A stretch of DNA of 63,114 bases, filler included, from Bigelowiella natans CCMP2755 (lineage: Eukaryota > Protista > Cercozoa): NCBI GenBank assembly GCA_000320545.1. It is 6 parts of 6 records of this genome, joined end to end, with 100 filler letters (N's around TTAATTAATTAA, not from the genome) between each part and the next. Parts side by side here need not be neighbours in the genome. Positions count along the whole stretch, not along the records: positions 31,067 to 35,914 come from ADNK01000662.1; 5 more parts are not named here. One strand, written 5' to 3'. Within the stretch, counting starts at the first letter, position 1. Every line of letters begins with the position of its first letter. Shown here one piece after another: positions 2,387 through 53,379 of the stretch. The notes below the pieces were generated by a model, which worked only from the letters and a program-made list of their open reading frames with translations, was not told the origin of the DNA and did not search any database. Both the position numbers and the translations under genes were made by a program.

Positions 2387-3822
2387 CATATGCAAAACAT
2401 ACATATACCCCAACCTCCCCCCCCCCCTCCACTCCCTGTCAAACTGATACGCATTCTGGTGGATGGACGTGACGGCCACGTGCAGCGCAGTCTCCCCGTT
2501 GTCGTTCACAATACGGGTCAAAACCCCCGCCGCTTTCGAGTCGCCGCCATTCTTCAACAGCAGCACCCTGGCCACTTCTACCTGGCCTGCTTTAGCTGCA
2601 AGATGTATTGCCGTGTTTCCGGAGGAGTCACGAGCTCTAGGGTCGGCTTTGAACGACAGGAGGGAGGAGCAGATCGCTGCAGCAGCCTCTCCCCTATTCA
2701 AATTCAATTATAGCATCACGCATTTCGTTCGGTTGCAGGGGGGGGGGGGGGGGGAGGGAGGGAGGGAGGGGGGGGGGAAGAGGAAAAGAAGAAGGAAAAT
2801 CAGATTTATTCTCTCTCTTCATGTGCTCGTTGTAATGCGATGCGCGGTGTCGTGGCTGCAAGTGTGAAAATCCTCTTTGGAGATACGAGAAAACGCCGTG
2901 TGGGTGCGAGCGTGGCCTTGCACGATAACGCACTTCATGACGATCTTCGAATCTATTTCCTCTATGCCTCCTCTCCACTCTCTCTTCGTCTTCTTTTACT
3001 ATACGAACGAGAACATATATTCAACCGAAACCGTGCGCACACGGCGCGAAAGGAATGCACATGTAGAGCTAGACGTGTGTGGTGGTGGTGGTGGTGGTGG
3101 TGGTGGAAGAGGACTTTTGGTCCGACAGCTCCGCCGTCCTGTGCAAGGCGGTTTTGCCGTGGTAGTCCTCGAGGTTGGGAGGGCATTTCATTCGCAGAAG
3201 GTACTCAACCAAGCGCCCATGAGAGCGAAACTGCGCGGCTAAGTGCAGCGGAGTCCTCCCCTCTCTATCCACCTGCTCACAGTTACAATGGGGCGCGAAA
3301 CCAAAGAACACACTGAAACAGAATACAGAGCCGACGTTGGCCTGGAACTACTAGACCACTACCACTCCGCGTCTATAAGGTGAAGAAGGAGCACATGATG
3401 GCAGTAGCAATATTTAAGCGCAGAGCAATCACACTACTATCTCCACTCTCACACTCGGAACGATTTCCTTGACAGACGCATAAACGCGTGCTCTAAATCA
3501 CACACTTCCAACACCTTCACTGCCCCCACAATGGCTACAATCGCCTCCATCATAATAGCATTCATTAACAAGCGCCCCCCCCCTCCCCCCTTCCTCGATC
3601 TACCTCCCAGTCTTTAGCAGTCGCTCGAAGAGGCTCGCGAGGAGGGTGAGGATACGATGACGACGATGAGGATGAGGATGAGGATGATGATGATGATGAT
3701 GAGGAGGAGCTGCTTTGATTGCCCTGCGCGCCCTTCTCAGTACTTTGGCGGCGTTGGAAGCAGCGGAGGCGAGGGTTGGAGAGTAGTCGAACGCAACTCT
3801 GCAGATATGTACATATGTGCAG

Positions 3823-3855
<33 letters not shown>

Positions 3856-3867
3856 TTATACATATAG

Positions 3868-3903
<36 letters not shown>

Positions 3904-4092
3904 TATAGATAATCATATTGACTCCGATCATCTTTATATGCTGCCCTGCTTATTGGGAGGCATGCTTGGCACTTGCTGACGCGGAACATGTGCGTGGGGG
4001 ATGTGAATGCGAGGGAGATCGTCTGCTGTCGCACCTCAAAAGAACCCTGCTGTGCTGCAAGATGCAGAGGCGACCTGCCTTTGCTGTCCTAT

Positions 4093-4133
<41 letters not shown>

Positions 4134-4159
4134 CACGAGTACATGTTATGAAAAATAAT

Positions 4160-4194
<35 letters not shown>

Positions 4195-4239
4195 ATGTTG
4201 TGTAAATGTGTTAAGTAATGTTTAGAATATTTATAAACA

Positions 4240-17915: not shown

Positions 17916-18010
17916 TGAAAACAGAGGAAAATTATTCTCTAGAAATCTTTAAGATTTAATAATTGTTCAAATAGAAATTTAATTTATACTTAAACGCACT
18001 GCACAAGCTA

Positions 18011-19140
18011 CACAGGTCGGATCATGGAGGCAAAGGGGTCCCATTTTGCGCACAAATGGTCTGCAAAGTCATTTTGTAAACATTGAATTCAAAGTTCAAC
18101 GGTCTGGAAAATGCTGCTTGGCAATGTTGAAGCTTTGTCGCACCATCAAAAGGATCGGCGTTCATTTTTAAAATTTGGCGCGAAACCGCAAACCAAGCGT
18201 TTGCCTGCGAAACACTTTGTCTTGGGATCGATTCATTCATGAGGCCACGGGGGGAATCAGCGTGACCTGCAATCCTTTCAACCGCTCCTGTGGAAATGCA
18301 CAATTCATTCATTTGTTCACCCATTTTGGCGCTTTGTTGGAATGTCGATGTGAACTCGAACAAATCAATCAACCAGCCAATCAACAATCCGTTCCAGCGT
18401 TGTTGGAACGTGAAATGAACGTGAATTGACAATCACACTCGATCAAATGATCTGCGAAAGTTGGAACGTCGAAGTTGACGTGATTCGACCTGGTGGTGAA
18501 TGCTTGAGAGGGTCCAGTGCCTGAGAAAGGGTCTAGAGCTTCCAAGCAGCACAAACCTGCACCCCGCTAGCCTGCTAGCCTTTTGGATTGCCAAAACGAA
18601 TGTGAACCAACAAATCAATCAATCAATCAACCCAACGATCCAACGATTCTCGCTTTTCAAATGCACCACTGGCGCAACTTCGTGCACTTGTGGTTTCACG
18701 CATGCGCACTCATTGAGCTCAAATCAGTAAAAGTCTGCAAAAGTCAGGAAGAAAGGTTTCGCAAGCGCTCGCAGTCATCTCCATTCCCCGCCTACGAGCT
18801 CTTCCACACATTAGGATTGAAAAACGTCCAGTGTCTCGAGGCACCAACACCACTGCATGTCTTCCCCTTCCCTCTTATTCCCACCCCCAATGCTGCAAAT
18901 GAAAGCTATTTGAGAGTTGGAGAGCACCAGAGCTAGCAGAGGACATGCTTCCGGAGGCGGCCAGCTAGCCAGATCTAGAGATCGCCAAACGTCAAAGACA
19001 CACTGCAAAAAGGAGACGTTGAGTGAAAGGGAAAATGACGAGAGAGTGGTTGCAAGCAAGCTAATTAGGCAGCAGCAGCATCGCTTGGCCAACTCTTCAC
19101 GATGGAATCACGCAACACGAGCTAGCGAGGCTTGGAAGGT
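18011..19140. other. TpA-depleted (hypermutated) island 2, probably a decayed repeat or foreign insert
   Basis: Only 16 TpA in ~1130 bp of moderately AT-rich DNA, none in 18171-18533; 7 of the 16 are CTAG. Flanks (e.g. 17941-18000) are TpA-rich. Confidence 0.7.
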
Positions 19141-21786: not shown

Positions 21787-22008
21787 ATACTCGGTCGGTT
21801 AAAGCGTTTCTGAGAGTACAGTTTGGGATCCCTTTTCTAACGAAAATCAGGAAAATACGCTGTCGCATGTGAAAATTCAGTGCATTTTGAAATGCTGAAA
21901 TGCTAGGTTTTATATCTTCGATCTATCCACATCGATGCACGATGAACGGGGGCGGCCATCTAACAGGACCTCCCCGTGCATTCTCTAGCACATCATAAAT
22001 CTCTTTTC

Positions 22009-24591
22009 ATGGAAGACATTAGTTTGGGCTCGCCGATCAATTCTGGTGGGGAGAGACTTGGACTTAAAAGAGGCCTCGTGAGAGGTGTTAAATGTCCGAG
22101 GTGTGGACGGCGCTATGAAAGCACTTCTGTTATGCTAACCCATTTGAAGGAGTCCCATTTTATTTCGAAAAGAAATAGCAGACCTACAAAACAGGAAAAA
22201 CATAATTCTGCAAACAACAAAGAAGACAAAAAAATAATTAGTAAGAATGCCAAACAGACGCCATTGAGCACGCCGAAGCGTTGTCGTCTCGTGGTTGACT
22301 TTGATGCTCTCCTCTCCGATGAAGAGCAGGAATATATGCACGCGTGGAGGGCAGAATCAGCTCCCTCAACGCCAGGTTCGAAGTTCTCCGCACATACCGC
22401 CAACTCTAACGGGAAAAGAAAAATCGAGAGTCCCGTTGGTACTAGGAGGGGGGGCGATCCGAAATCCCCCAAGATTCCATATATCATCGACCTCGACGCC
22501 TTATTTGAAAATAATGGTGGGGGAGGCCAATCCACTGCCAGCGCAGTTGAAACCTTAATCAACCCAGCTTGCAATAGAGTCAACGATTGTGCTGCTACTA
22601 CTTCAAAGCAGGGGAATCATGTTGGTAAGGCACTTTCCTCCCAGACTGGTGATGCAGAACGCCAAAAGGTTACATCGGCAGCTCTTCGCGATAACGCGTC
22701 AATGTCTGCAGCGAGCATACGCGTATCTTCTAAGAACAAAGCTACAACATCTCTCGCAAAGGATAGTAAAGCGCAGCAAAAGGTACTGCGGTCTAAACTC
22801 AAAACGAGCAATAAAATGAAGGGGAAACCCTCCCCGTTCCCTGTGCGCAGCCCCGGGTTAAAGAGTAGGAACACGGGCAGCAGTTTGATGCCTCTACATG
22901 ATTCGATAGAAGACACCCTGAGCCGTAATGATCGAGGATGGAAGTTTTTCCCATGCTTAAGCCTCAGAACAACCTTTTTCGTCGCATCGATCTTGCTGCT
23001 ACTCTACGCGGGAACGAGCACATTGATCCTTGTCGTGACAATCGGGCAGCACCGCGCTCAAGTGGATGAAGGCTACGATTTCCAAATCCTGGTGTATTAC
23101 ACCTACCTCTTCGGGCAGGAGGCGTGCTTGTTCGTCCTCTACTTGCGCACCATTAAGCCTTCTTTGGTCCGCCGAGAAAACATACGCACGTGGGGCGGGA
23201 TCATCGCCACGATGTGTTTCCTCCGGGTCATGATTGAATGGCGGCTTGTTCGCGCTGGCAGCCCGTCGGCAGTTGTGGGGATTTTCGCAATTCTCTACGG
23301 CCTTGCCAATATGACGGCAATCCTGTTCTACCCCTTGCATCTACTGCTGAATGCGAACAGGCTGGGCGATGCGGGCGGGGGGGGGAGAGTAGCTCGGTGC
23401 TGGGAAGTCCTCAGTGTTACGAAGTACCCTGCGATGGTTCTCTTCTACTTGCCACTAATGGTGCTGACCTTTTGTCTCCCGTTAGCCTTCCCGTTTGACC
23501 AAGCAATCTTCACTCTGCTGCTGGCCGTTTGGTCAGTCTTTGGAGTTGTCGCGCTCATAGGCATGGTGGCGATGAAGGAATGTCTGCGACATGATCACAT
23601 AGGCTACGTGCTCTATTGCGCGTTAACATCGTATAGCCCGCGCGTGATTGGGAATGTGATATCAGCGCTGACGCGGCTGAACTTCGCCTATAAGGGCGTT
23701 ATGCTCGTCGTTGCGACGAAGGTATGAAAAGCACGGTTTTAGCCTTCCAGCAATGCGTTGTAGATGGTTGAATAGTCTTCTTCCATTTTATACATTCTCT
23801 TGTATGAAGCTTGAGTAGTCTTCTTCCATTTTATACATTCTCTTTTATGACGAGTTCTTCTAACGTTGGCCGGCATGTCTTACGTATGCGTGTTCCACTA
23901 TAGCATGCTGTGCTCACTGCCTCCTCCTTCTCCTTCTCCCCCTCATCCTCCTCCTCCTCATTCTCCTCCTCCTCATCCTCTTCCCCCGTGTCATTGTACG
24001 GCACCAACCAACATATTAGGTGATCTTCCAGGTGGGCATGTTCATGACGTCAGTACAGCTCAATGTCCTAATTACACACGGGGCGCGCCAAACGAACTCA
24101 CTGCTCTTCGCGTGGCAGTTTGGCCAGTACTTCATCGTCAACGCACTATTTCTGGACGGGGGGCTCGACGGGGAGTTTGTCGTGATGTTCATCGTCAATA
24201 TGGCCTCCTCAATCCTCAGAGACAGCGGTAAGCAGCACCGGTTATGTGCGGCAGTTTGTTATCCTCTCCAACTATACCTGTCTCCTCTTATCGCGACGAT
24301 TCTTCTCTCTCCCCCCCCCCCCCCTCCCACCAGGAATATTGCACGAATTCTTCTGCAAATACATAATGAAGATGACGGAGAGCACCGACATAGCGAATGA
24401 GATGCGGGAAATATATACCCTCACACAGCAGAACTCGCTCGCGGAGGTGCTATGCGCGCCGTTACTCCTCGTGATGGTGATGGTCGAGTACGCGGCGACC
24501 GGGGGAGAGACGCCATTAGGAATCCCAATCATCATGTCAAATGTGGACAGGTAGCCGCGAAAGTTTGGGATCTAGTGCGCGAATAGAATAT

Positions 24592-30966: not shown

Positions 30967-31066
30967 NNNNNNNNNNNNNNNNNNNNNNNNNNNNNNNNNN
31001 NNNNNNNNNNTTAATTAATTAANNNNNNNNNNNNNNNNNNNNNNNNNNNNNNNNNNNNNNNNNNNN
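30967..31066. other. Assembly gap / artificial contig linker
   Basis: N44-TTAATTAATTAA-N44 (stop-codon linker). Confidence 0.97.
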
Positions 31067-31289
31067 CAAAAAAGAAACCCATCCCCATTTTTTTCTTTTA
31101 GCCCCCCCCCCCCCCCCCTTCCCCCCATTTTTTTTTCAAAGGTGAAAACGGGGGCCATGGGGGGGGTTCAGTGCAGGTCCGGGGCACCCCCCTTTTGACT
31201 TAATGTGTGCAGGCCCGGGTTGCGGGAGAGAAAACCTTTCTGTGGCATTTGTTCCCCCCCCCCCCCCTTTCCACCCCCCCCCCCGGCTT

Positions 31290-31700
31290 CTTCCTTTTCA
31301 ATGCGAAAGAAGCAGGTTTGCAAGAGTTTGAAGTGCACCACACGCAGCTGTTGGCTGACGTGACACAAGACACTCCGGGTCACGCACACAAGAAGAAGTG
31401 CTGCCCACGTGCCCACACTCCCATGCCAACCCCCCCCCACAACCACTTGCACCTCCCCTTCGGAGAGTCTCCTGTGTCCTGAAAGTGGATGAGAAAGTCA
31501 GGTCACATCGTCACGGAAGTGGTGGTGCAGGTGCAAACGAAAAAAACCACCTCACCTGCCAGGCTGGGGCAACCTTGACCAGCTCGGCTGTGGCCCCGCT
31601 GGGTTGCAAACCTGAACGACGTGACGATGTTGTCGGGCAAAAAGACGTCAATTGCAATGAAAACGATTGATGAAAACACCCACGTGGCGGAGGAGCTTCA
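31290..31700 (-). pseudogene. Remnant of a multi-pass membrane protein gene, Tyr/Leu codons eroded
   Basis: Reads SATWVFSSIVFIAIDVFLPDNIV...VVFFVCTCTTTSVTM*PDFLIHF...WHGSVGTWAALLLVCVTRSVLCHVSQQLRVVHFKLLQTCFF. It is hydrophobic, has no Tyr, and has one in-frame TGA. Confidence 0.4.
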
Positions 31701-32996
31701 GGAGGTTGACCACCTGCAGCTCCACGCACGTCGATGTGTGCACACGTGAGGCGGGGAAGGCCCACCCAGCGTTGCCTTTCCCACCCTCCACCACAGACAC
31801 TGCAAGTGACTTCCGTTGCCTGCAAAGTGAAACGTTCTTTCACTTCGGTCAACTCCAATTCCCTTCAGGTGGCACTCAGCAACATCGGTGGTCGCATTGC
31901 CACTTCCCTTTTCAAGTGCTTCCTTGCAAAGTTCAAGTGCCTTTTGCAGATTTCTTTCAACCCCACACCCGTCACAGCAGCAAATTGCTGAAGTGAGTGT
32001 TGCTTTTGAAAATCCCTCCTTGTGTGCCACTTTGCAGAGTTCAAATTCCTTTTCTTCACTTTTCTCAACGAAAGTTCCGCTGTGATGGCAATGACCAAGG
32101 TTGCAAGTCCCACAAGCACTTCCCATTTTGTGTGCTGGTTCGTGCAGTCGGAATGCCTTTTCCTCGTCTTTCGTGATTCCAATTCCTTCTTGGCAGCAAT
32201 GACCCAGGTTGTTGACAACACAAGCGTTTTCTCTTGTGATTCCTTTTTCAATTCCTCTTTTGAACGCTTCCTCGGATGCTTTGAATGCCTTTTGGAAGTT
32301 TTTTTTTGTCCCATGACCTTCCACATGGCAACAACCCAGAAGACTGGTTCCCACAGCATTGCCCACATCGTGTGCTTTTTTGGAGAACTCACGTGCCTTT
32401 TGCCCTTGTTCCGTGTCATTGCAACACACACACAATTCGCACATTCCCTCATCGTCCAAGTCACCCTTTGCGAACTTCTCCTCGCATTCCTTGGTCCCAA
32501 ACAAGAGAGTGCAAGCAAAAAAGGAACGACAACAGGCAAAGGCAACTTGCTCTGCCAGTTTTGCTTCCTTCTCCAATTTGATGTGTTGCTCAACCAATTC
32601 ACACGTTTCCTTCTCGCCCAAGTCATCGTTCTCAAACTTCTTCAAAAAGTCGTCACGATTGAACCTGAACACTTCGTTCCTTCTCACTGCTTCTTTTGCT
32701 TTCTCGCACATTGCACACGGAACATCCGCCTTCTTGTGGTTTCTTGCAACACCCCTTCCGTGTTCATGGCAATGAGCGAGGTTGTTGGTGGCAATTGGAT
32801 GTCCCTTCTCGTGTGCCACTTTGCAGAGTTCAAGTGCCTTTTGACAACCTTTTTTCACTCCTCTTCCATTGTCACAGCAAACACCCAACACGTCAGTCGC
32901 ACGAACACGTCTCTTCTTGTGTGCAGGTGGGCACTGCCCACATCGCAGATGCCGCCATTGGCGGTTGCAATGATCATCATTGTCATTGCTTGCACG
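31698..32996 (-). pseudogene. Sel1-like repeat (SLR/TPR) protein gene, intronless, all Tyr converted to Cys/His
   Basis: About 7 Sel1 repeats, e.g. LGVCCDNGRGVKKGCQKALELCKVAHEKG, NNLAHCHEHGRGV, NNLGHCCQEGIGITKDEEKAFRLHEPAHKMG, CNLGHCHHSG. No Tyr in the 397-aa ORF. The frame is open from 32996; the ORF track starts at GTG 32891. Confidence 0.88.
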
Positions 32997-33146
32997 TCAC
33001 ACACTTGGTGAAGGAAAAGAAGGACACGAACTCGTGTGGAGACTTTTGGTGAACGAAGGAACTTTCACGTCTTTGGGAAACAGCAAGTTGCGTCGTGCTC
33101 CAAAACCGTCACTTTTCGAAAAGACCTTCTCAGAACCACCTCACTT

Positions 33147-33533
33147 TCAACCTTTTCTCAGGACGACTGAAGTTGAAAACCGAAGTTGGGAAGACCAAAA
33201 GACGTTGTGAGAGACCACGACTCCAAAGGGACCTTTTTTCACCTTGACCCTCCTTGCCACGGTCAAAGTGCCCACGAAGAGAAGCAGCAGCAGGCAGAGG
33301 AAGAGCAACAGCAGCCCCGCAACCACGATTGGGCCACCCGTGATCGTCTGCGAGCACGCACTGCAAACCACAACACACGCCCAGGAGGAGCAAAAGGTCA
33401 AAGCGTGGACCTGGAAAGTGCGGAACCCGTGCACACCAATGACCAAGAACACGTGGGAAGTTCGCACGTCGTGGACGGCACGGTACGCACAGGGACACAA
33501 GTGTCCACGTGCCCTGACACACGTGGACCGCAC
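33147..33533 (-). pseudogene. Remnant of a membrane protein gene, TpA/ApT eroded
   Basis: VHDVRTSHVFLVIGVHGFRTFQVHALTFCSSWACVVVCSACSQTITGGPIVVAGLLLLFLCLLLLLFVGTLTVARRVKVKK. It becomes a normal 2-3 TM segment if H/C are read as Y and S/P as L. Confidence 0.4.
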
Positions 33534-34217
33534 TGGTCAAGTGAACTGCATGCCTTGGGTGCACTTTGGTGCACGTGTGGGCAGCAACACACGTCGTTGT
33601 GTCACGTGTGGCAGGAACACACGAACCGAGCTGCACGTGTGTTCCACGCGCGTGCACGCCCACAGCCCCGGCCAGCCGGGCCCACGGCTAGACGGGGGGG
33701 AGAGGCACCACGCAAAGTGATTGCAGCTCATCACCAGTGGACTACCAACTCTTGGACTTGTTTCAATTTTTGAAGTTCACAAGGGATTCGGCCCGAGCGA
33801 CAACGCTTCCCTGCAAAACAAGCCAGGTCGCCTTGGTTGGAATCGAAGCCAGAACTGCCAAAAAATCACACACTTTCAGCTTGCGACATGCCTCAGTCGA
33901 AGTCGCACACATGGTTGTTCCCTTCGTCTGGACTCGGAAAATTGCGGGAGATCATTGTGTTTGACTTGACGCTGATAGCTGGCCTCGAATGGGCCTTCTG
34001 CATCCGATCTGATCCTTTTCACCTTCTGGCTCAAGGAGAACAAAGCTACCGATTCCATCACAACCACCATCTTCAGTCGATTGACTCCAGCGATCTGCAA
34101 CCTAACAATTTGATGATTGATTTTTGGGTGGCGGGATTTTGACGCGTCATTTTAATTGTGCATCTTCGCCTCAGCACTCGCATTTCCCCCTCCCACCCCT
34201 TCCTCTCTTCCTCCATT

Positions 34218-34534
34218 TCACAGAAGTGCCCTCTGCATCTCATCCTCGATGGGATGTGCAAGGTGTTGAAAGCCGCGTGACATTTGAGAGCCTTTGCCCA
34301 AATTTGTCCATGCTGATCGTTTCGATTTATCACAAGGCATCAACGCTTCTACGCTGATAAACGAAGGAGTGAAACCTGGAATCAGTGCAAGCCGATGCGC
34401 TAATGAGGGATCCTCCATGTCTCCTAGCATATCCGAGTGCAGGAGCGAACAATACGACAGTGCGGGGGAGGTAGTCGTCGTGAGATTAAGGATCTCAGCA
34501 AACCACAATGTGCCTAAAGTCCACAAATATATGT

Positions 34535-35914: not shown

Positions 35915-36013
35915 NNNNNNNNNNNNNNNNNNNNNNNNNNNNNNNNNNNNNNNNNNNNTTAATTAATTAANNNNNNNNNNNNNNNNNNNNNNNNNNNNNN
36001 NNNNNNNNNNNNN
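35915..36013. other. Assembly gap / artificial contig linker
   Basis: Ns flanking TTAATTAATTAA at 35959-35970. Confidence 0.97.
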
Positions 36014-36202
36014 NCCCCCCCCCCCCCCCCCCCCATCACCGTTAATTTCAAGCCTCTCGAGCATGTCGACGGGCAGAGCCCTTCGGTTGTACAATGCTGC
36101 AGAAGGCGCGTAGCGCTGAGATCGGAGCCGGCTGGTGCATAGAGGCGTATTTGTACGTGTACTTGTGTGTTTGTGTGAGTATGAGTGCGCGAGGGTATGC
36201 GT

Positions 36203-43292: not shown

Positions 43293-44142
43293 TTTCGAGC
43301 GCGATTCGAATCAGTTCGTCCACGGATGCAATAACTCGGGGCCTGCAAGATGATGATGATGGCGAATCGTTTCGTCATTCCAAAAACCCTTCCACCACGT
43401 GCGAGGAAACAAAAATACGAAGATTTGCCCTATAGCTTGGTCGCATGGTAGGGGGCAGAATGCCATCGGCAGCATGCAAGCATGCAAGATACATGTAAAG
43501 GGGGAACAGTACGGACAATGTTTTTCAGGGGGGGGGGAAGTTGACCACAACGGCTTCAATTATCCGGGCCAAAAATTTAGGATGTTTTATGGATGAAAGC
43601 TGCACTCATGACCGACCTTGTTCCGGCGATGTCGCACGTCGGAAACACGTTCGTAACGGACTAGATACTAGGATGCAACTGGGGCGACAAGGAAATAGGA
43701 AAAATGCCTAAGGATTCATGATCGCGACAAGAAAAATCGGCAAGAGAAATTGGCTCTCCCGACTTCAATTCCAGTTGGAAAACGGCAACGGAAACGGCCG
43801 GGAAACTCGAAAAAGTTGAACAGCAGAGACGCGAAGCTCACCCGCTCTCCTGGATAGAAGAAACTCGAACGAGGGGCTCACGTCGCTGGCAGGAGGAAGG
43901 TTGGTCAACGGGAAGAATGCCTCGCCCCCTTCCACCAGAATTCTGCCATGTATTTAATGATTATGAAGTTGCATTTGTCTAGCGTGCGAGCCCCGTGTTA
44001 CGTTACACATGATTTGATGGAACATTTTTGTTTTACAAATAAAATACATCCTCGCTTGGAATCGCCCCTTTCAAGTACGTTATACGTGTGAGACAAAAAG
44101 GACCTAGCTTTCCAAACCCCGGAAAGTCTCTATCAGACTGGG

Positions 44143-44880
44143 ATGGCCAAACTGCCGGAAAGCATGCGCGCGATTTCTTCTGGCCCTGACTTAAGCTACT
44201 GCGGTTTCCCAATAGAACCAGCCTCCCGTCGCACATACGAGAGTAAAGCCTCGACGCATTATGAGGGGGAAGCAAGTGTGCGAGGAACCCAAACCAAGTG
44301 CAAAGACACGCCATTAGATGTGGACAGGCAAAGGATAGAATTCGAATCAGCCGAAATACATGCATCGGTGCACTGGATTGAGTACCATGACGAAGATTCC
44401 GGCGCAGCGTATTACGTTGACACAAACACTGGTGATTCCACGTGGGAGCGTCCAAAGTCGCCAATATTTGTAGGCCCTGAAGAGAGCCGACTGAATCCAA
44501 GCATGGGCCTGAGAGGTCACGATTCCTTTGGCACAGCAGCTCCTCTGCAGGAGATGAACTGGGTGTCTTCCTACAGTGATCAGGCCCCGTCAAATCAGGA
44601 AGTGCAGGCCGCAAAGATGACAACGGATGAATCTGAGGAACATGCAACACCAGAACCTACTACTATGGACACTGTTCTTTCCATGGGGTCGTTGCTATCA
44701 TCCTTGCCTTCCATCCCCGAAGAGTCAAAAATAGGGGGATCCGACGAAGAAAATACTCAGAGTAGTCAACGAAGCTCCGCTGGTTCCACCGTGGAAACCA
44801 CTCGCGATGGTACTACCAGAGCGACGATGGAAGAACAACGCAGCAGGGTAATAGTTCAAGAGGAAGCTAGAAGGCCATAA
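44143..44880 (+). CDS. WW-domain protein; 5' end possibly further upstream
   Basis: HWIEYHDEDSGAAYYVDTNTGDSTWERP matches the WW consensus; the rest is acidic and disordered. Confidence 0.8.
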   Translation: MAKLPESMRAISSGPDLSYCGFPIEPASRRTYESKASTHYEGEASVRGTQTKCKDTPLDVDRQRIEFESAEIHASVHWIEYHDEDSGAAYYVDTNTGDSTWERPKSPIFVGPEESRLNPSMGLRGHDSFGTAAPLQEMNWVSSYSDQAPSNQEVQAAKMTTDESEEHATPEPTTMDTVLSMGSLLSSLPSIPEESKIGGSDEENTQSSQRSSAGSTVETTRDGTTRATMEEQRSRVIVQEEARRP

Positions 44881-45444: not shown

Positions 45445-47752
45445 TCACTCCAGGTTCTCGAGCCACGCTTGGTCGTCCATGTTGTACCGCTTCCGAACGC
45501 GCGTCCGGCGAGTGCCTTCCTCTATGATGTTGTTAAGCTCTAGGCCTGCGAGGAGGGAAAGGGGATTGGCGGGGAGGGTAGCCGAGGCAGGTGGCGAGGG
45601 TTGGGGGGGGGAGGGGTACAGGTGAGCTACGTCAGTATCTTGCAGAAATGTGGAAGAATGCTTTTGCAAGATGAGATTTGTTTAACAGGCAACAGTCCCT
45701 CCCCTCCCACCCTCATTGCGTGTAGTCGAGAGAATCACCTGAGGCTCGAGTGCGCTTCTCGATCATGTCCTTCTGCTTTTTCTTCTGTCGGAGGTCCTCG
45801 GCGATGCTCTCGAAGACCTGCCGCATGTAGTTGATGGTGGCGCGGGCCGTCTTTGTCTTCGGCCGCTTCTCGCGAAACTCCGCGGCCAAGCTCTCCACCC
45901 CCTCAAGATCTGTTGATTTTGCGCTTGGTTTAGATTGGTGTGCATGTGTGTGTTTTGTGCGCGCGTGCGTCGTCGCTGAGTGTGGAATCGCATCGAAATG
46001 GAAATGGCTTTTCACGCTTCATGCCGTTGTGCACAAAATCAAGTGAAACAGAACGAGAAGACGCCCTTCTCTGCTATTCCTCACTCATCGTTTCACCACT
46101 CTCCTTTTCTTTCTCTTCTTCTCGATCCCCCCCCCCCCCCTTGACTTCCCTAATATTGCTTTCACGAGCGAGTCGCTACCACACACAAAAAATCGCCACA
46201 TCTTTCTAGCATGTTGTCCCCCTCCCCCCCCCTCCCCCTTGCCTCGCTGGTGCCCACCACTCCAGCAGTCACGTACCAGTAGCAACGAGCTCCCAAGTAT
46301 GCTCCTCTTCCGCCTCCTTCTCTTCGTCCTCCTCTTCGTCGGCTGCTCCTTCTCCCTCCTCCCCCTCCTGTTGCGCCTTCCTCCTCTTCCCTCTGGCCTG
46401 CTGCTGCTGCTGCTTCTTCTTCCGCTTCTTCAGGTGCGGCGCGGGGGGGAGGCTTTCCCGGTACACATGCGCCTCGGGCCGCCTGTCGTCGAAGGAAAAG
46501 CTCCAGTAGCGATGCCGCTGGTCGGAGGCGAGCGGCTCGCTCGCGAACGGCCGCTCACGCTCGTCGTAGACCACGAGCTCCCTGACGAGCTCGTTTTCGG
46601 CCAAGTTCCACTCGCACAGCCAGGAGAGCACGCGCACCTTCTCCGGCGCCGAGAGTTCGGAGAAGGCCCGCGCCGCGAGGGGGTTGTCGAGCTCGGACTC
46701 GAGCCCGCATTGCGCCAGGTGACCGGTGATCTGCGTCGCGAGCTCCCGTTCCCACGAGAACTCGTCGATGCGGTCCTGCTTGGCCGGGAGGTAGAGCTGC
46801 AGCAGTGTGCGCGCGAGGTTGGCGGCGAAGTCGGGCGGCCTCGCCCCCGTGAGGGAGTCCTGCAGCAGCCGCGGCGCGAACGTCTTGAGCAGCTCCCACT
46901 CGTGCATGAACTTGCCGAACGTCTCGCACCACATCAGCACGAAGCCCCACTTCCAACTCGACTCGAGGGATTGCAGCGCACTTCCGTCCTCTTCCTCCTT
47001 CTTCTTCTTCTCCTTCTCCTCCTCCTCCTCCTGCTGCTCAACCCGCCCCTCCAGATCTGCGGGCGAGAGGACCTGCTCAGGGAAGGCGGCGCGAGCGACT
47101 TCCATGAAGCGCCGCCAGGTCGAAAAGGCCAGGACGCTAAGCTCGCTCTCCCGCCCGTGGTAGCGCACGCAGTTGTCGCGAATCAGTCGGAAATCCCTCG
47201 CGAACTCGGTGACGGTGGGGTACCTGCCCTTCTCATCAACCCCGTGCTCTATGGTGGAGATGTCCATCGGCCTCTTGATGATCTCGGCGTAGTTGGGGGG
47301 GGCGGCCTCCCCGTCGCCGAGCACCGGGCGGCGGAACGGCCAGGAGTCTGGATGGCGCCTCACGCTCCTCGCCACTTGCAGGAGCGCGTCGCGGAACACG
47401 TCCGCCTTGGCGCGCTTCCTCGACAGGCTCCTGAGCTTCATCATGAAGGCCTTCTGCAGCTCCTTGGCCAGGTCGCACAGCTTGCCGGGGCCGTTGTAGG
47501 ACACGCAGTTCGTGACGATGAGCTGCAGGAACTTGAAGAGGTGTCCGATGGTCGTGCACACGCCCTCCTCCGCCACCTTCTGCAGGGTGTCGAAGTCCAT
47601 CGGGTGCTTGATGGTTTTACTGTAGCTGTGAACAACAACAACAACAACAACAATAACAATAAGAACAACAACAACAAAAATGAAGCACTCGTTTCAGAAG
47701 GGGGGATACAGGGGAGGAGGGGGGAGGGGTAATCAAAGCTACGATGCGAGCT

Positions 47753-47795
<43 letters not shown>

Positions 47796-49304
47796 TCATG
47801 TATACATATTCTTTCCTTCCTTCCGAGAAAGTCTACTCCCTCCCCTCTCCCCTCTCCCCTCTCCCTCCTGTCCCCCCCTTCCTCTTCTTCTCCTTCTTTT
47901 CCTTCTTAATATTATTATTATTATCATTATTATCATTATTCGCGCAGCAGTCGTCGTGTCCCTACTCCGGCGCGATGTCGTCGGTCACGGGGTAGAGGAA
48001 GTCCTGGAACCGCGGCTGCTCCCCGAGGCTCCGCACGAACTCGATCACCTCCTCCGGGCGCAGTTTCCGCTTCATGTCGATCCCGCTGGTGTTGGGGGGC
48101 TTCAAAGCTGCACTCGCGCGCAGCGCGTAGGAAGAGGAGGTGGAGGAGGAGGAGGAGGAAGCTAGGCCACCAGTTGCGGCCTTGCGCTCGGGCCGTGTCC
48201 TCTGCTGTCGTTTCGATGTGGGAGCTGCTGCTGCTCTCTGCGCCCGGCGCCTGGTTGAAGAGTGGCGGTCGTCGTTATAGAAGTGATCATCCGGCTGCTG
48301 CCCCCGGGTGTCATCATCCTTGCTGCTATCCTCCGCACGCCCAGCAGCGGTTTGGAGGGGGTAGGCATTTCTCCCAACGGGCTGCTGCTGCTGCGGTATC
48401 ATAGAGGCAACTTCACCCTTACTACCCCCACCGCCCGCCGCATGCTGTGGATGGAGCACGAATTTCATTCTAGGGTTGAGGGTTTCCCCTGTTAGCATCA
48501 TCCTTCCCCCCCCCCCCCCCCCTGCTTTTCCTGCTGCCGCAGCCACCTGTGCGAGGAGCTGCGCTCTGTGCTGTTGCTGCTGCTGCAGCTGCCGGCGGTA
48601 CGAATCCAAAACAGCTGCGAACTGCGGCTGGCCGCTGTTCTGGCCCTGATACATCGTGGTCGACGAGGAGGGGTTCCACGCTTTTAGAGTGGAGGTATTC
48701 ATGGTTGCGCCAGTTGTAACCTGCGGAAAGAAATTCAGCCGTTCGTTGTTGGCCCGCGGGCGGGTCAAGCACGCCGCTTCCAGCGCGCGTGTCGAGAGCA
48801 ACACTATCACGCCACGCTAGTCGGTTTCCAGCACGCCACGCTGCGCACCGCTCAGACGTATTACTTTCTGAGCGGTGCGAGCTTTGGTGGCGGCAAGACG
48901 AAAACATTCTAAGAAGATTTGAAAGAAATTCAAAGCGAAGGTGATCAGTGACAATGGCGAAGGCGATTCGGTTGCCCGTCTCCCTGTTTTATGATTCCCC
49001 CGCGGAGTCACAGGATTCTACATGTTTGGTGGGCGATGCCTCGCCTTTGTGAAATACTTCTGGAGACTACTTAGTCGGGCACTATCTCTCCCGCAGCATC
49101 ATCCTCTCAAATGCGTACCGCTCTTTGTGCTCCGTGGGCGATGCCGGCATCTGTGTATGTTTTCGTTTCAGCGTTCCACCGCGTCAGCTTTCCAGTAGGA
49201 GTATGGCACATCAACTTCGTGCGCGGATCGTAAACGTAGCCATTCTGATAGTATATCTTCCCGTCCCGTTGGATGTACGAGGACGCTGGCTGCTGTGCCG
49301 CCAT
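45445..49304 (-). CDS. Chromatin protein: OCRE-like N-terminus, two bromodomains, DDT/WHIM1/WSD-like region (ISWI-partner type)
   Basis: Exon 1 (ATG 49304) MAAQQ...YYQNGYVYDPRTKL... splices in phase 0 to VTTGATMNTS at 48720. Bromo 1: FLYPVTDDIAPD/YSKTIKHPMDF...NCVSYNG. Bromo 2: SWPFRRPV...PNYAEIIKRPMDISTI...NCVRYHG. DDT-like LESSWKWGFVLMWCETF, WHIM1 FSELSAPEKVRVLSWLCE, and WSD-like EPLASDQRHRYWSF...WELVAT. Confidence 0.85.
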
Positions 49305-49441: not shown

Positions 49442-50305
49442 ATGGTGGAGCCACCGGGCTCGATGAAGTCTATGCTGCGTCTCCTTCTGCTCCTGCCGGT
49501 AACGGTATCCCTCTTGAAAATTGGGAACGTGGGGGGAATCTAAAAGAGACGTGGAGGAAAATTTTGAGCCATCCAACCCCCAGCCATAGTTTCTCCCTCG
49601 CCATCTTCCAACCCCTGTTTTCTGAACATCCAGGTAATGGTGGGGAGGGCGCACACTGTGGACCCGAAAGTCGCGAGCTTTCTGATAACTGGAGAATCGA
49701 GGGTCAGTAACCCAGCCTTGATGCTGCTTCCACCTTCCCTCCTCTTTCCCTCCCGCTTTGAAAGATGATGATCTGATGCGAAAATCGTCTTTTAACGCAG
49801 GATACCATCTCCGTTTCTCTTCCCAAGAGGCGCGCCAAGTGCACGTTCGATTATGTGGTGAGCTCTTCTGCGTCGTACATTGTGCAAATGACTCCCCGCG
49901 TAACGACAAATCAGCTCCGCCCACCCCTACATTTGATTCCGAGAGGAGGTCTCATTATTGTTCCACGCGCAGGCCGGACAGCCCGTTCACGAGAAGAAGC
50001 AAGTGAAAGAAGGTGCTGAATGGTGACGAAAGAGCGAGAAATAGGAAGCTGTGCATCAGCGATGGCGATTGTTATCGCGTATTGTTCATGACCCCCCCCC
50101 CCCCACTCCTCCTCCTCCAACTCCGTAGGCTCACAGATAAAAGTTGAAGACGTCGTGCATAGNNNNNNNNNNNNNNNNNNNNNNNNNNNNNNNNNNNNNN
50201 NNNNNNTTAATTAATTAANNNNNNNNNNNNNNNNNNNNNNNNNNNNNNNNNNNNNNNNNNNNAGGAGGAGGAGTACGTGGTAAGTTAGGTAGTAATGGAT
50301 TAGTT

Positions 50306-51540: not shown

Positions 51541-51640
51541 NNNNNNNNNNNNNNNNNNNNNNNNNNNNNNNNNNNNNNNNNNNNTTAATTAATTAANNNN
51601 NNNNNNNNNNNNNNNNNNNNNNNNNNNNNNNNNNNNNNNN
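51541..51640. other. Assembly gap / artificial contig linker
   Basis: Ns flanking TTAATTAATTAA. Confidence 0.97.
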
Positions 51641-53279: not shown

Positions 53280-53379
53280 NNNNNNNNNNNNNNNNNNNNN
53301 NNNNNNNNNNNNNNNNNNNNNNNTTAATTAATTAANNNNNNNNNNNNNNNNNNNNNNNNNNNNNNNNNNNNNNNNNNNN
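53280..53379. other. Assembly gap / artificial contig linker
   Basis: Ns flanking TTAATTAATTAA. Confidence 0.97.

Follow-up and report, generated by a model that had tools for sequence, protein, structure and literature searches.

How does a gene assembled from Sel1 repeats, in which a core tyrosine is otherwise conserved, come to encode no tyrosine at all? The locus lies in a stretch of Bigelowiella natans CCMP2755 DNA of 63,114 nucleotides, filler included (the whole of which we analysed and refer to as the window), for which a sequence-only reading had reported a Sel1-repeat gene with 0 Tyr in 397 amino acids. The frame at 31698–32996 on the minus strand is indeed open and Tyr-free; it counts 432 codons from stop to stop and 397 from the first GTG, with no clear start codon, and its ends are probably decayed or read through. 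The Sel1 identity was confirmed by running Pfam Sel1 on the native sequence (92.4 bits against a cut-off of 30.7, E=1.4e-26), and the frame holds about seven scoring tandem repeats of 36 amino acids plus two partial ones. Residues 36–398 contain no TAY, TTA, CTA, ATA or GTA codon, T|A codon junctions are likewise absent (0 versus 24.8 expected), and Cys and His account for 8.5% and 5.5% of the residues, compared to 1.4% and 2.2% in host exons. The gene and its surroundings comprise the following features.

30967–31066, no strand: gap spacer (N44-linker-N44), adjoining the left contig end of the island.
31067–33700, no strand: segment poor in TpA and ApT, with 4 TpA left and 67 ApT versus 147 expected.
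31203–33483, no strand: TpA-free core tract, with rho TpA of 0.00, CpA/TpG of 1.45 and GC of 52%.
31698–32996, minus strand: the intronless Sel1-repeat ORF.
32403–32726, minus strand: non-repeat middle part of the ORF (approximately residues 91–198), with no sequence homologue.
33701–34330, no strand: fringe, with 6 TpA versus 40 expected and 41 ApT versus 40 expected.

The core tract, bounded by the nearest TpAs at positions 31202 and 33484, has 0 TpA in 2,281 bp where base composition predicts ∼134, and no TpA-free run exceeded 255 bp when the window was simulated 100 times with a Markov model. In the remainder of the window rho TpA is 0.77; TpA is normal again by 34331, and beyond this point TpA and ApT are both normal. 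The island occupies the left end of its contig (4.8 kb), and its left edge falls beyond the contig end. On this contig, the segment from 31067 to 33700 likely represents the extent of the targeted insert, with the insert ending near 33700, and the fringe likely reflects mutation that spread into flanking DNA, ∼0.6 kb past the ApT-poor segment. Within the window we found no terminal inverted repeat, long terminal repeat or second copy of the island, nor any Rfam match, and the island ORFs carry no reverse transcriptase or transposon domain in Pfam or PHROGs. The right part of the island, 33000–33700, has 4 ApT versus 31 expected and several long frames on both strands without a family match, as expected because TAA and TAG are gone. 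With 17 sites in 2.3 kb, ACGT is approximately three-fold enriched over the island, and within 33000–33700 many of these sites read CACGTG.

As reference for the Tyr positions we used 1,642 repeats from 149 of the best 150 homologues of a profile search (1.84 billion proteins), aligned by anchoring on non-aromatic columns only. Column 11, which holds the core Tyr, is Tyr in 87% of these repeats, His in 3.4%, Cys in 1.5% and Arg in 0.1%; in the ORF it reads C, H, H, C, H, C, H, that is Cys or His in 7/7 repeats and precisely the series that had been reported. The triplets in which this series was first read (VCC, HCH, CCH, HCC, HCH, ICC, ECH) are all present with the Tyr column as their third letter, but their middle Cys is native, since column 10 is Cys in 67% of the homologues and TGC in 7/7 ORF repeats. 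Similarly, the claim that every Tyr site had become Cys or His holds for column 11 and for five of the seven repeats at column 28, the second aromatic position (Tyr 61%, Phe 26% in homologues), but not for the remaining two, which read Ser (TCC) and misfit because a Tyr codon with a TpA transition cannot yield TCC. The highest Cys/His share at these two columns in any of the 149 homologues was 4/22, and the Tyr count was never below 7 in the 131 homologues having a comparable 363-aa repeat window. Summed over the seven scored columns, there are 11 TGY and 11 CAY codons; both strands were therefore hit, in agreement with the near-even split of TAY>TGY and TAY>CAY proposed earlier. Column 32 reads His in five repeats and Leu in one, and because all five His codons are CAC and none is TGC this His is probably native, as judged from codon usage, so that the back-mutation to Tyr suggested earlier over-corrects it. 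As to the proposed change of Leu to Ser or Pro, the TCA of TSAICC does fall in a column that is 94% Leu, whereas the column of the Pro (CCA) of LHEPAH is only 8% Leu and offers weak evidence. Cys and His at the core column also occur in other Sel1 genes: one from Dialister (3001–4197 of its record) reads H, H, C, C in 4/4 scored repeats and has a low rho TpA of 0.38, yet Tyr is kept elsewhere and TpA is present, and one from Psychrobacter has 2 His in 7 at this column with Tyr and TpA kept. Among the internal repeats themselves, TG/CA swaps were merely 1.4-fold above chance and not decisive. Along 41 bp, the repeats at 32013–32053 and 32802–32842 are 90% identical, suggesting recent duplication or conversion within the gene. 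A skew in NAT:NAC codons (19:33 versus 58:34, p=0.003) was dropped as evidence, an intact Psychrobacter gene being equally skewed.

To read the direction of change, every possible single-base reversion was scored against the profile over 249 aligned residues. Reversions gaining more than 1 bit in the ORF numbered 39/88 to TpA, 18/37 to ApT and 14/62 to other A/T contexts, compared to 21/79 to CpG and 9/150 to other G/C contexts (TpA versus non-CpG G/C, p=2e-12). In three intact plasmid Sel1 genes, the corresponding counts were 19/122 (TpA), 6/58 (ApT), 16/294 (other A/T), 24/201 (CpG) and 25/456 (other G/C). Gains of more than 3 bits in the ORF were 20/88 for TpA versus 3/79 for CpG. The reversion scores indicate that change ran from A/T to G/C, mostly from TpA, the direction being that implied by the homologue profile. 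No unmutated copy or close homologue was present in the databases searched, and the change from ancestor to descendant was not directly seen. The earlier view that mutagenesis, and not codon or dinucleotide selection, shaped the gene is borne out by these two-stranded, non-synonymous TpA>TpG/CpA transitions.

A process of this kind has been described in the same organism by Mettrop et al. (bioRxiv 10.64898/2026.01.13.699255), who reported TpA>TpG/CpA hypermutation of integrated viral DNA in B. natans, with 230 of 231 de novo mutations in viral regions being A>G or T>C and each of these lying at a TpA, as well as 324 near-TpA-free coding sequences and 124 clusters; ADAT2 is proposed there as a candidate enzyme. 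Our literature search retrieved no other report of the phenomenon. Akin to the hypermutated viral DNA, the island shows TpA>TpG/CpA change on both strands in a local TpA-poor and CpA/TpG-rich setting. The target here, by contrast, is a Sel1 gene without viral match, and the direction was read from conserved residues. When the cut-offs of the preprint, which are 5% tails of another assembly, were applied here to three fixed 1-kb windows, TpA was 0.10, 0.00 and 0.08, all within the cut-off, and CpA+TpG was 1.37, 1.60 and 1.40, one of the three reaching the cut-off of 1.52. The ORF is a further instance of the described B. natans-type process, for which erased genes are already known. Two features, the ApT depletion and the two Ser sites, are not predicted by the TpA-only spectrum of that process. 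We further see survivors rich in YTAR and a 0.6-kb fringe, and the ApT context, a flank rule for survivors and the fringe may be additions to it. The main text of the preprint mentions neither Sel1, tyrosine and cysteine nor ApT, context, spread and flank, and its supplements may list Sel1 genes.

In light of these results, we consider it highly probable that the TpA-free tract with its Sel1 gene was produced by TpA>TpG/CpA mutation on both strands, by a host process acting on inserted, likely foreign DNA, the agent probably being a DNA adenosine deaminase. The most likely candidate would be an ADAT-like DNA adenosine deaminase. In such a scheme, the inserted segment would be marked as foreign or repeated, and an ADAT/TadA-type enzyme would deaminate the A of TpA to inosine on either strand; inosine would be read as G, and replication would fix TG or CA. 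Each hit would remove its own target, turning Tyr into Cys or His and Leu (TTA) into Ser while the frame stays open, and the insert would likely be inactivated through missense load and not through stop codons. The mark or the enzyme would also spread ∼0.6 kb into the flank, and prolonged exposure would erode the weaker context ApT as well. TadA-type deaminases prefer a 5′ pyrimidine (YA; bioRxiv 10.1101/2024.11.19.623682). The proposed activity would resemble ADAT2/3, TadA and TadA-derived base editors in its A>I chemistry with a 5′ pyrimidine, and would differ from the YA-preferring TadA enzymes in that CpA is here a product, not a substrate. As in fungal repeat-induced point mutation (RIP), local dinucleotide-directed transitions destroy invading DNA. 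RIP creates TpA. Its direction is the opposite of that seen here, RIP being C>T (bioRxiv 10.64898/2026.01.13.699255).

Simulated TpA erasure of intact Sel1 genes left 0 Tyr, 3–6% Cys and 6–7% His and lowered their profile score by 22–27%, with 0 in-frame stops in 60 runs. The sequence-only reading had taken the open frame as proof that hypermutation was fast relative to ordinary decay. This argument fails: TA-free DNA holds no TAA or TAG, TpA transitions cannot create stops, and the open frame is therefore no clock for point decay, so that only the missing frameshifts carry timing information. Among 1,000 random TA-free tracts, 12 had a frame of at least 432 codons and 80 a frame of 333 codons. 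At B. natans rates, which are borrowed throughout these estimates, erasing the tract would take ∼2.7e5 generations, over which 0.02 indels are expected in the gene. Were a second context mutated at 1% of the rate for TpA, ApT would be halved in ∼4e6 generations with 0.3 indels expected, and such a context would be invisible in the published B. natans experiment; background mutation alone would need 3e9 generations to halve ApT, with ∼230 indels. That no TpA has been regained suggests, as a rough estimate on the same borrowed rates, that the mutator was active within ∼2e7 generations.

Could the A-to-G change have occurred on RNA instead? A transcript or retroelement might have undergone A-to-I hyper-editing before being reverse-transcribed and inserted, a route that would agree with the intronless state of the gene and with the preference of ADAR for U 5′ of the edited A (bioRxiv 10.64898/2026.01.13.699255). 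Editing of a single RNA strand, however, yields TA>TG only, at odds with a TGY:CAY ratio of 11:11, and the erasure spans non-coding DNA and fades into the flank. With island ORFs devoid of reverse transcriptase or transposon domains, and with a B. natans process reported to act on single-copy chromosomal DNA, we regard this route as improbable, although it survives better than the others.

Slightly less probable still is that the donor avoided TpA (and ApT) by codon or dinucleotide selection and that the gene arrived in its present state. Intact Sel1 genes do vary in this respect (rho TpA 0.38–0.93, ApT 0.62–1.11), and the ApT deficit may be explained in part or entirely in this way, but none of the six control genes approached zero TpA. 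Moreover, synonymous selection cannot strip a protein of all Tyr (0/131 homologues fell below 7 in a like window), and it does not account for a second, unrelated TpA-poor island at 18010–18790.

Decay of methylated CpG (CG>TG/CA) as the source of the TG/CA excess is a yet more remote prospect. The CpG rho is 0.67 in the tract versus 0.95 elsewhere, as such decay would predict, but erasure of TpA alone lowers the CpG rho (erased host 1-kb windows had a median of 0.75 and a 10th percentile of 0.61). The core column is merely 0.1% Arg in homologues, the strong reversion gains favour a TpA ancestor (20/88 versus 3/79), and removal of TpA is impossible by that route.

Least probable of all is that the ORF belongs to a natural, functional Cys-rich Sel1 family comparable to Hcp of Helicobacter, or that Tyr is still made from it through recoding or editing. 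The frame is open and there is a weak match to PDB 1ouv (H. pylori HcpC; E=4e-9), but Sel1 proteins of Helicobacter carry Cys at column 32 with Tyr kept at column 11 (12/12 repeats), while in the ORF column 32 is His or Leu and it is the Tyr columns that hold Cys; codon reassignment fails because TGC also encodes the conserved column-10 Cys, and TpA is missing outside the ORF too. Helicobacter Hcp proteins have paired Cys at repeat junctions in a C-x7-C spacing. In the ORF, unlike in Hcp, column 4 is Thr or Val and column 32 His or Leu, and none of the three C-x7-C spacings, which start from residues 259, 295 and 419, begins at column 32. Restoring Tyr by transcript editing would require two distinct editing chemistries.

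Deamination of DNA at TpA, our preferred reading, leaves the loss of ApT to be considered. Over 31067–33700 this deficit has P=1e-13, and as simulated TpA erasure left the ApT rho unchanged in 8/8 test sequences, it is a separate matter, which may reflect a second, weaker target or the composition of the donor. Reversions to ApT gained more than 1 bit more often than those to other A/T contexts (18/37 versus 14/62, p=0.007; p=0.057 without column 4). The weakening of this excess once column 4 is removed counts against a second target, as do three further observations: an intact Psychrobacter Sel1 gene has an ApT rho of 0.62, ApT goes down to 0.36 in one 500-bp window of the GC-rich exon of a host bromodomain gene, and ApT is normal in the second island. 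Decay of 6mA was rejected as an unlikely cause of the ApT loss, passages of PMC12695648 giving no link between 6mA and ApT depletion. Of 18 TpAs surviving in or beside both islands, 9 are YTAR and 1 is RTAY, compared to 18% and 31% of background TpAs (p=0.002 and p=0.013, on small numbers). A broader proposal, that a graded DNA adenosine deaminase (TAY > TAR >> ApT) acts also on horizontally acquired genes of non-viral origin, reaches ∼0.6 kb into the adjoining host DNA and represents a widespread A-to-G genome defence mirroring RIP, is speculative and in our judgement rather unlikely. The ApT deficit, YTAR survivors and fringe nevertheless provide testable predictions on the sequence preference and spread of the enzyme. 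The locus presents in clean form the end state of a genome-defence process that was not described until 2026, and its conserved repeat lets direction and strand balance be read without the ancestor, and Tyr-free, Cys/His-rich domains offer a simple screen for targets in other genomes.

Where did the inserted DNA come from? Like other Sel1-like repeats (PF08238), the ORF has 36-residue units with LG..C...G.GV and conserved Ala positions; unlike PF08238 proteins, its Tyr is wholly replaced, and the best 150 homologues are all at or below 40% identity. A word-indexed protein search with the ORF gave 4 matches at 25–29% identity, and none of 102 candidates for the middle domain. In the profile search of 1.84 billion representatives the best 150 matches had 27–40% identity, and none of these covered the middle domain. 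The top-scoring named homologues were fungal kinase-Sel1 proteins and bacterial proteins; among ten matches looked up, the closest repeats were those of kinase-Sel1 proteins from Rhizophagus, Diversispora and JGI records, along with those of a Bacteroidaceae protein. Plasmid searches matched 152 records, all below 60%, prokaryote genomes gave 2 generic Sel1 loci only, and the Atlas gave generic Sel1 proteins only, with weak leads (0.85) from the middle part to TPR/Sel1 proteins of Bacillota and Fusobacteriota. In PHROGs, the ORF matched a single Sel1-like family and the 9 neighbouring frames had no match. The phage DNA search gave no match to the ORF, and metagenome contigs held no close relative of it.

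A giant-virus donor, as had been suggested, thus finds no backing: exact-peptide scans of viral contigs, which are insensitive to mutated or diverged DNA, revealed no donor, and neither hallmark genes of Nucleocytoviricota nor best matches to them were seen in the 2.6 kb of the island, which is cut by the contig end. Passages of a paper on chlorarachniophyte giant viruses (PMC13196603) name neither a Sel1 nor a tetratricopeptide gene. The inserted DNA is nonetheless likely foreign, a judgement with two bases in its sequence, the absence of introns and an A-ending codon use unlike that of host exons. The description of the gene as Lys-rich and ancestrally AT-rich is correct in its first half (Lys 10.7% versus 5.5% in host exons) and too strong in its second, as TpA loss by itself yields an estimate of 39–42% for the ancestral GC (now 47%), which is only mildly AT-rich.

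Elsewhere in the window, the second TpA-poor island (18010–18790) has 6 TpA versus 55 expected, a CpA/TpG of 1.43 and normal ApT; it contains short CAAT/CAAC-rich runs, its left edge adjoins AT-rich DNA at ∼17990, and its one long frame had no Pfam or PHROG match. A 203-bp TpA-free stretch at 775–978, between CAT microsatellites (500-bp window with rho TpA of 0.23 and CpA of 1.67), might be another small target, the third, or have arisen by chance. The contigs are joined by identical 100-base gap spacers (30967–31066, 35915–36014, 50163–50262, 51541–51640 and 53280–53379), each made of 44 N, a 12-base all-frame stop linker and 44 N, whose TA steps are artificial and across which contig order is not assured.

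The bromodomain gene mentioned above (45725–48702, minus strand) belongs to the host; its product has two bromodomains as well as a WHIM1-like part and is collinear with a protein of Amorphochlora. Over its tblastn span (45725–48129) it matches a JGI protein at 40% identity and 90% cover and Amorphochlora amoebiformis at 31% identity and 94% cover (E=6e-75); the other three of five matches are fungal with less than 40% cover (8,000 candidates of 756–2,155 aa scored), and metagenome contigs held no close relative. Its GC-rich exon has TpA of 0.35 and ApT of 0.60 without a gain in CpA/TpG. Further host exons lie at 44092–44880 (plus strand), with a WW domain (Pfam E=4e-10), and at 21964–23727 (plus strand), a long exon containing a C2H2-like motif as well as several hydrophobic segments. 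The window as a whole has a GC content of 47%, 45 AC-repeat loci and 5.6% TpA, compared to a reported GC of 45% for B. natans and 27% for A. amoebiformis (PMC12730881) and a reported TpA of 6.0% for B. natans (bioRxiv 10.64898/2026.01.13.699255), in which AC repeats are described as common (PMC13746701).
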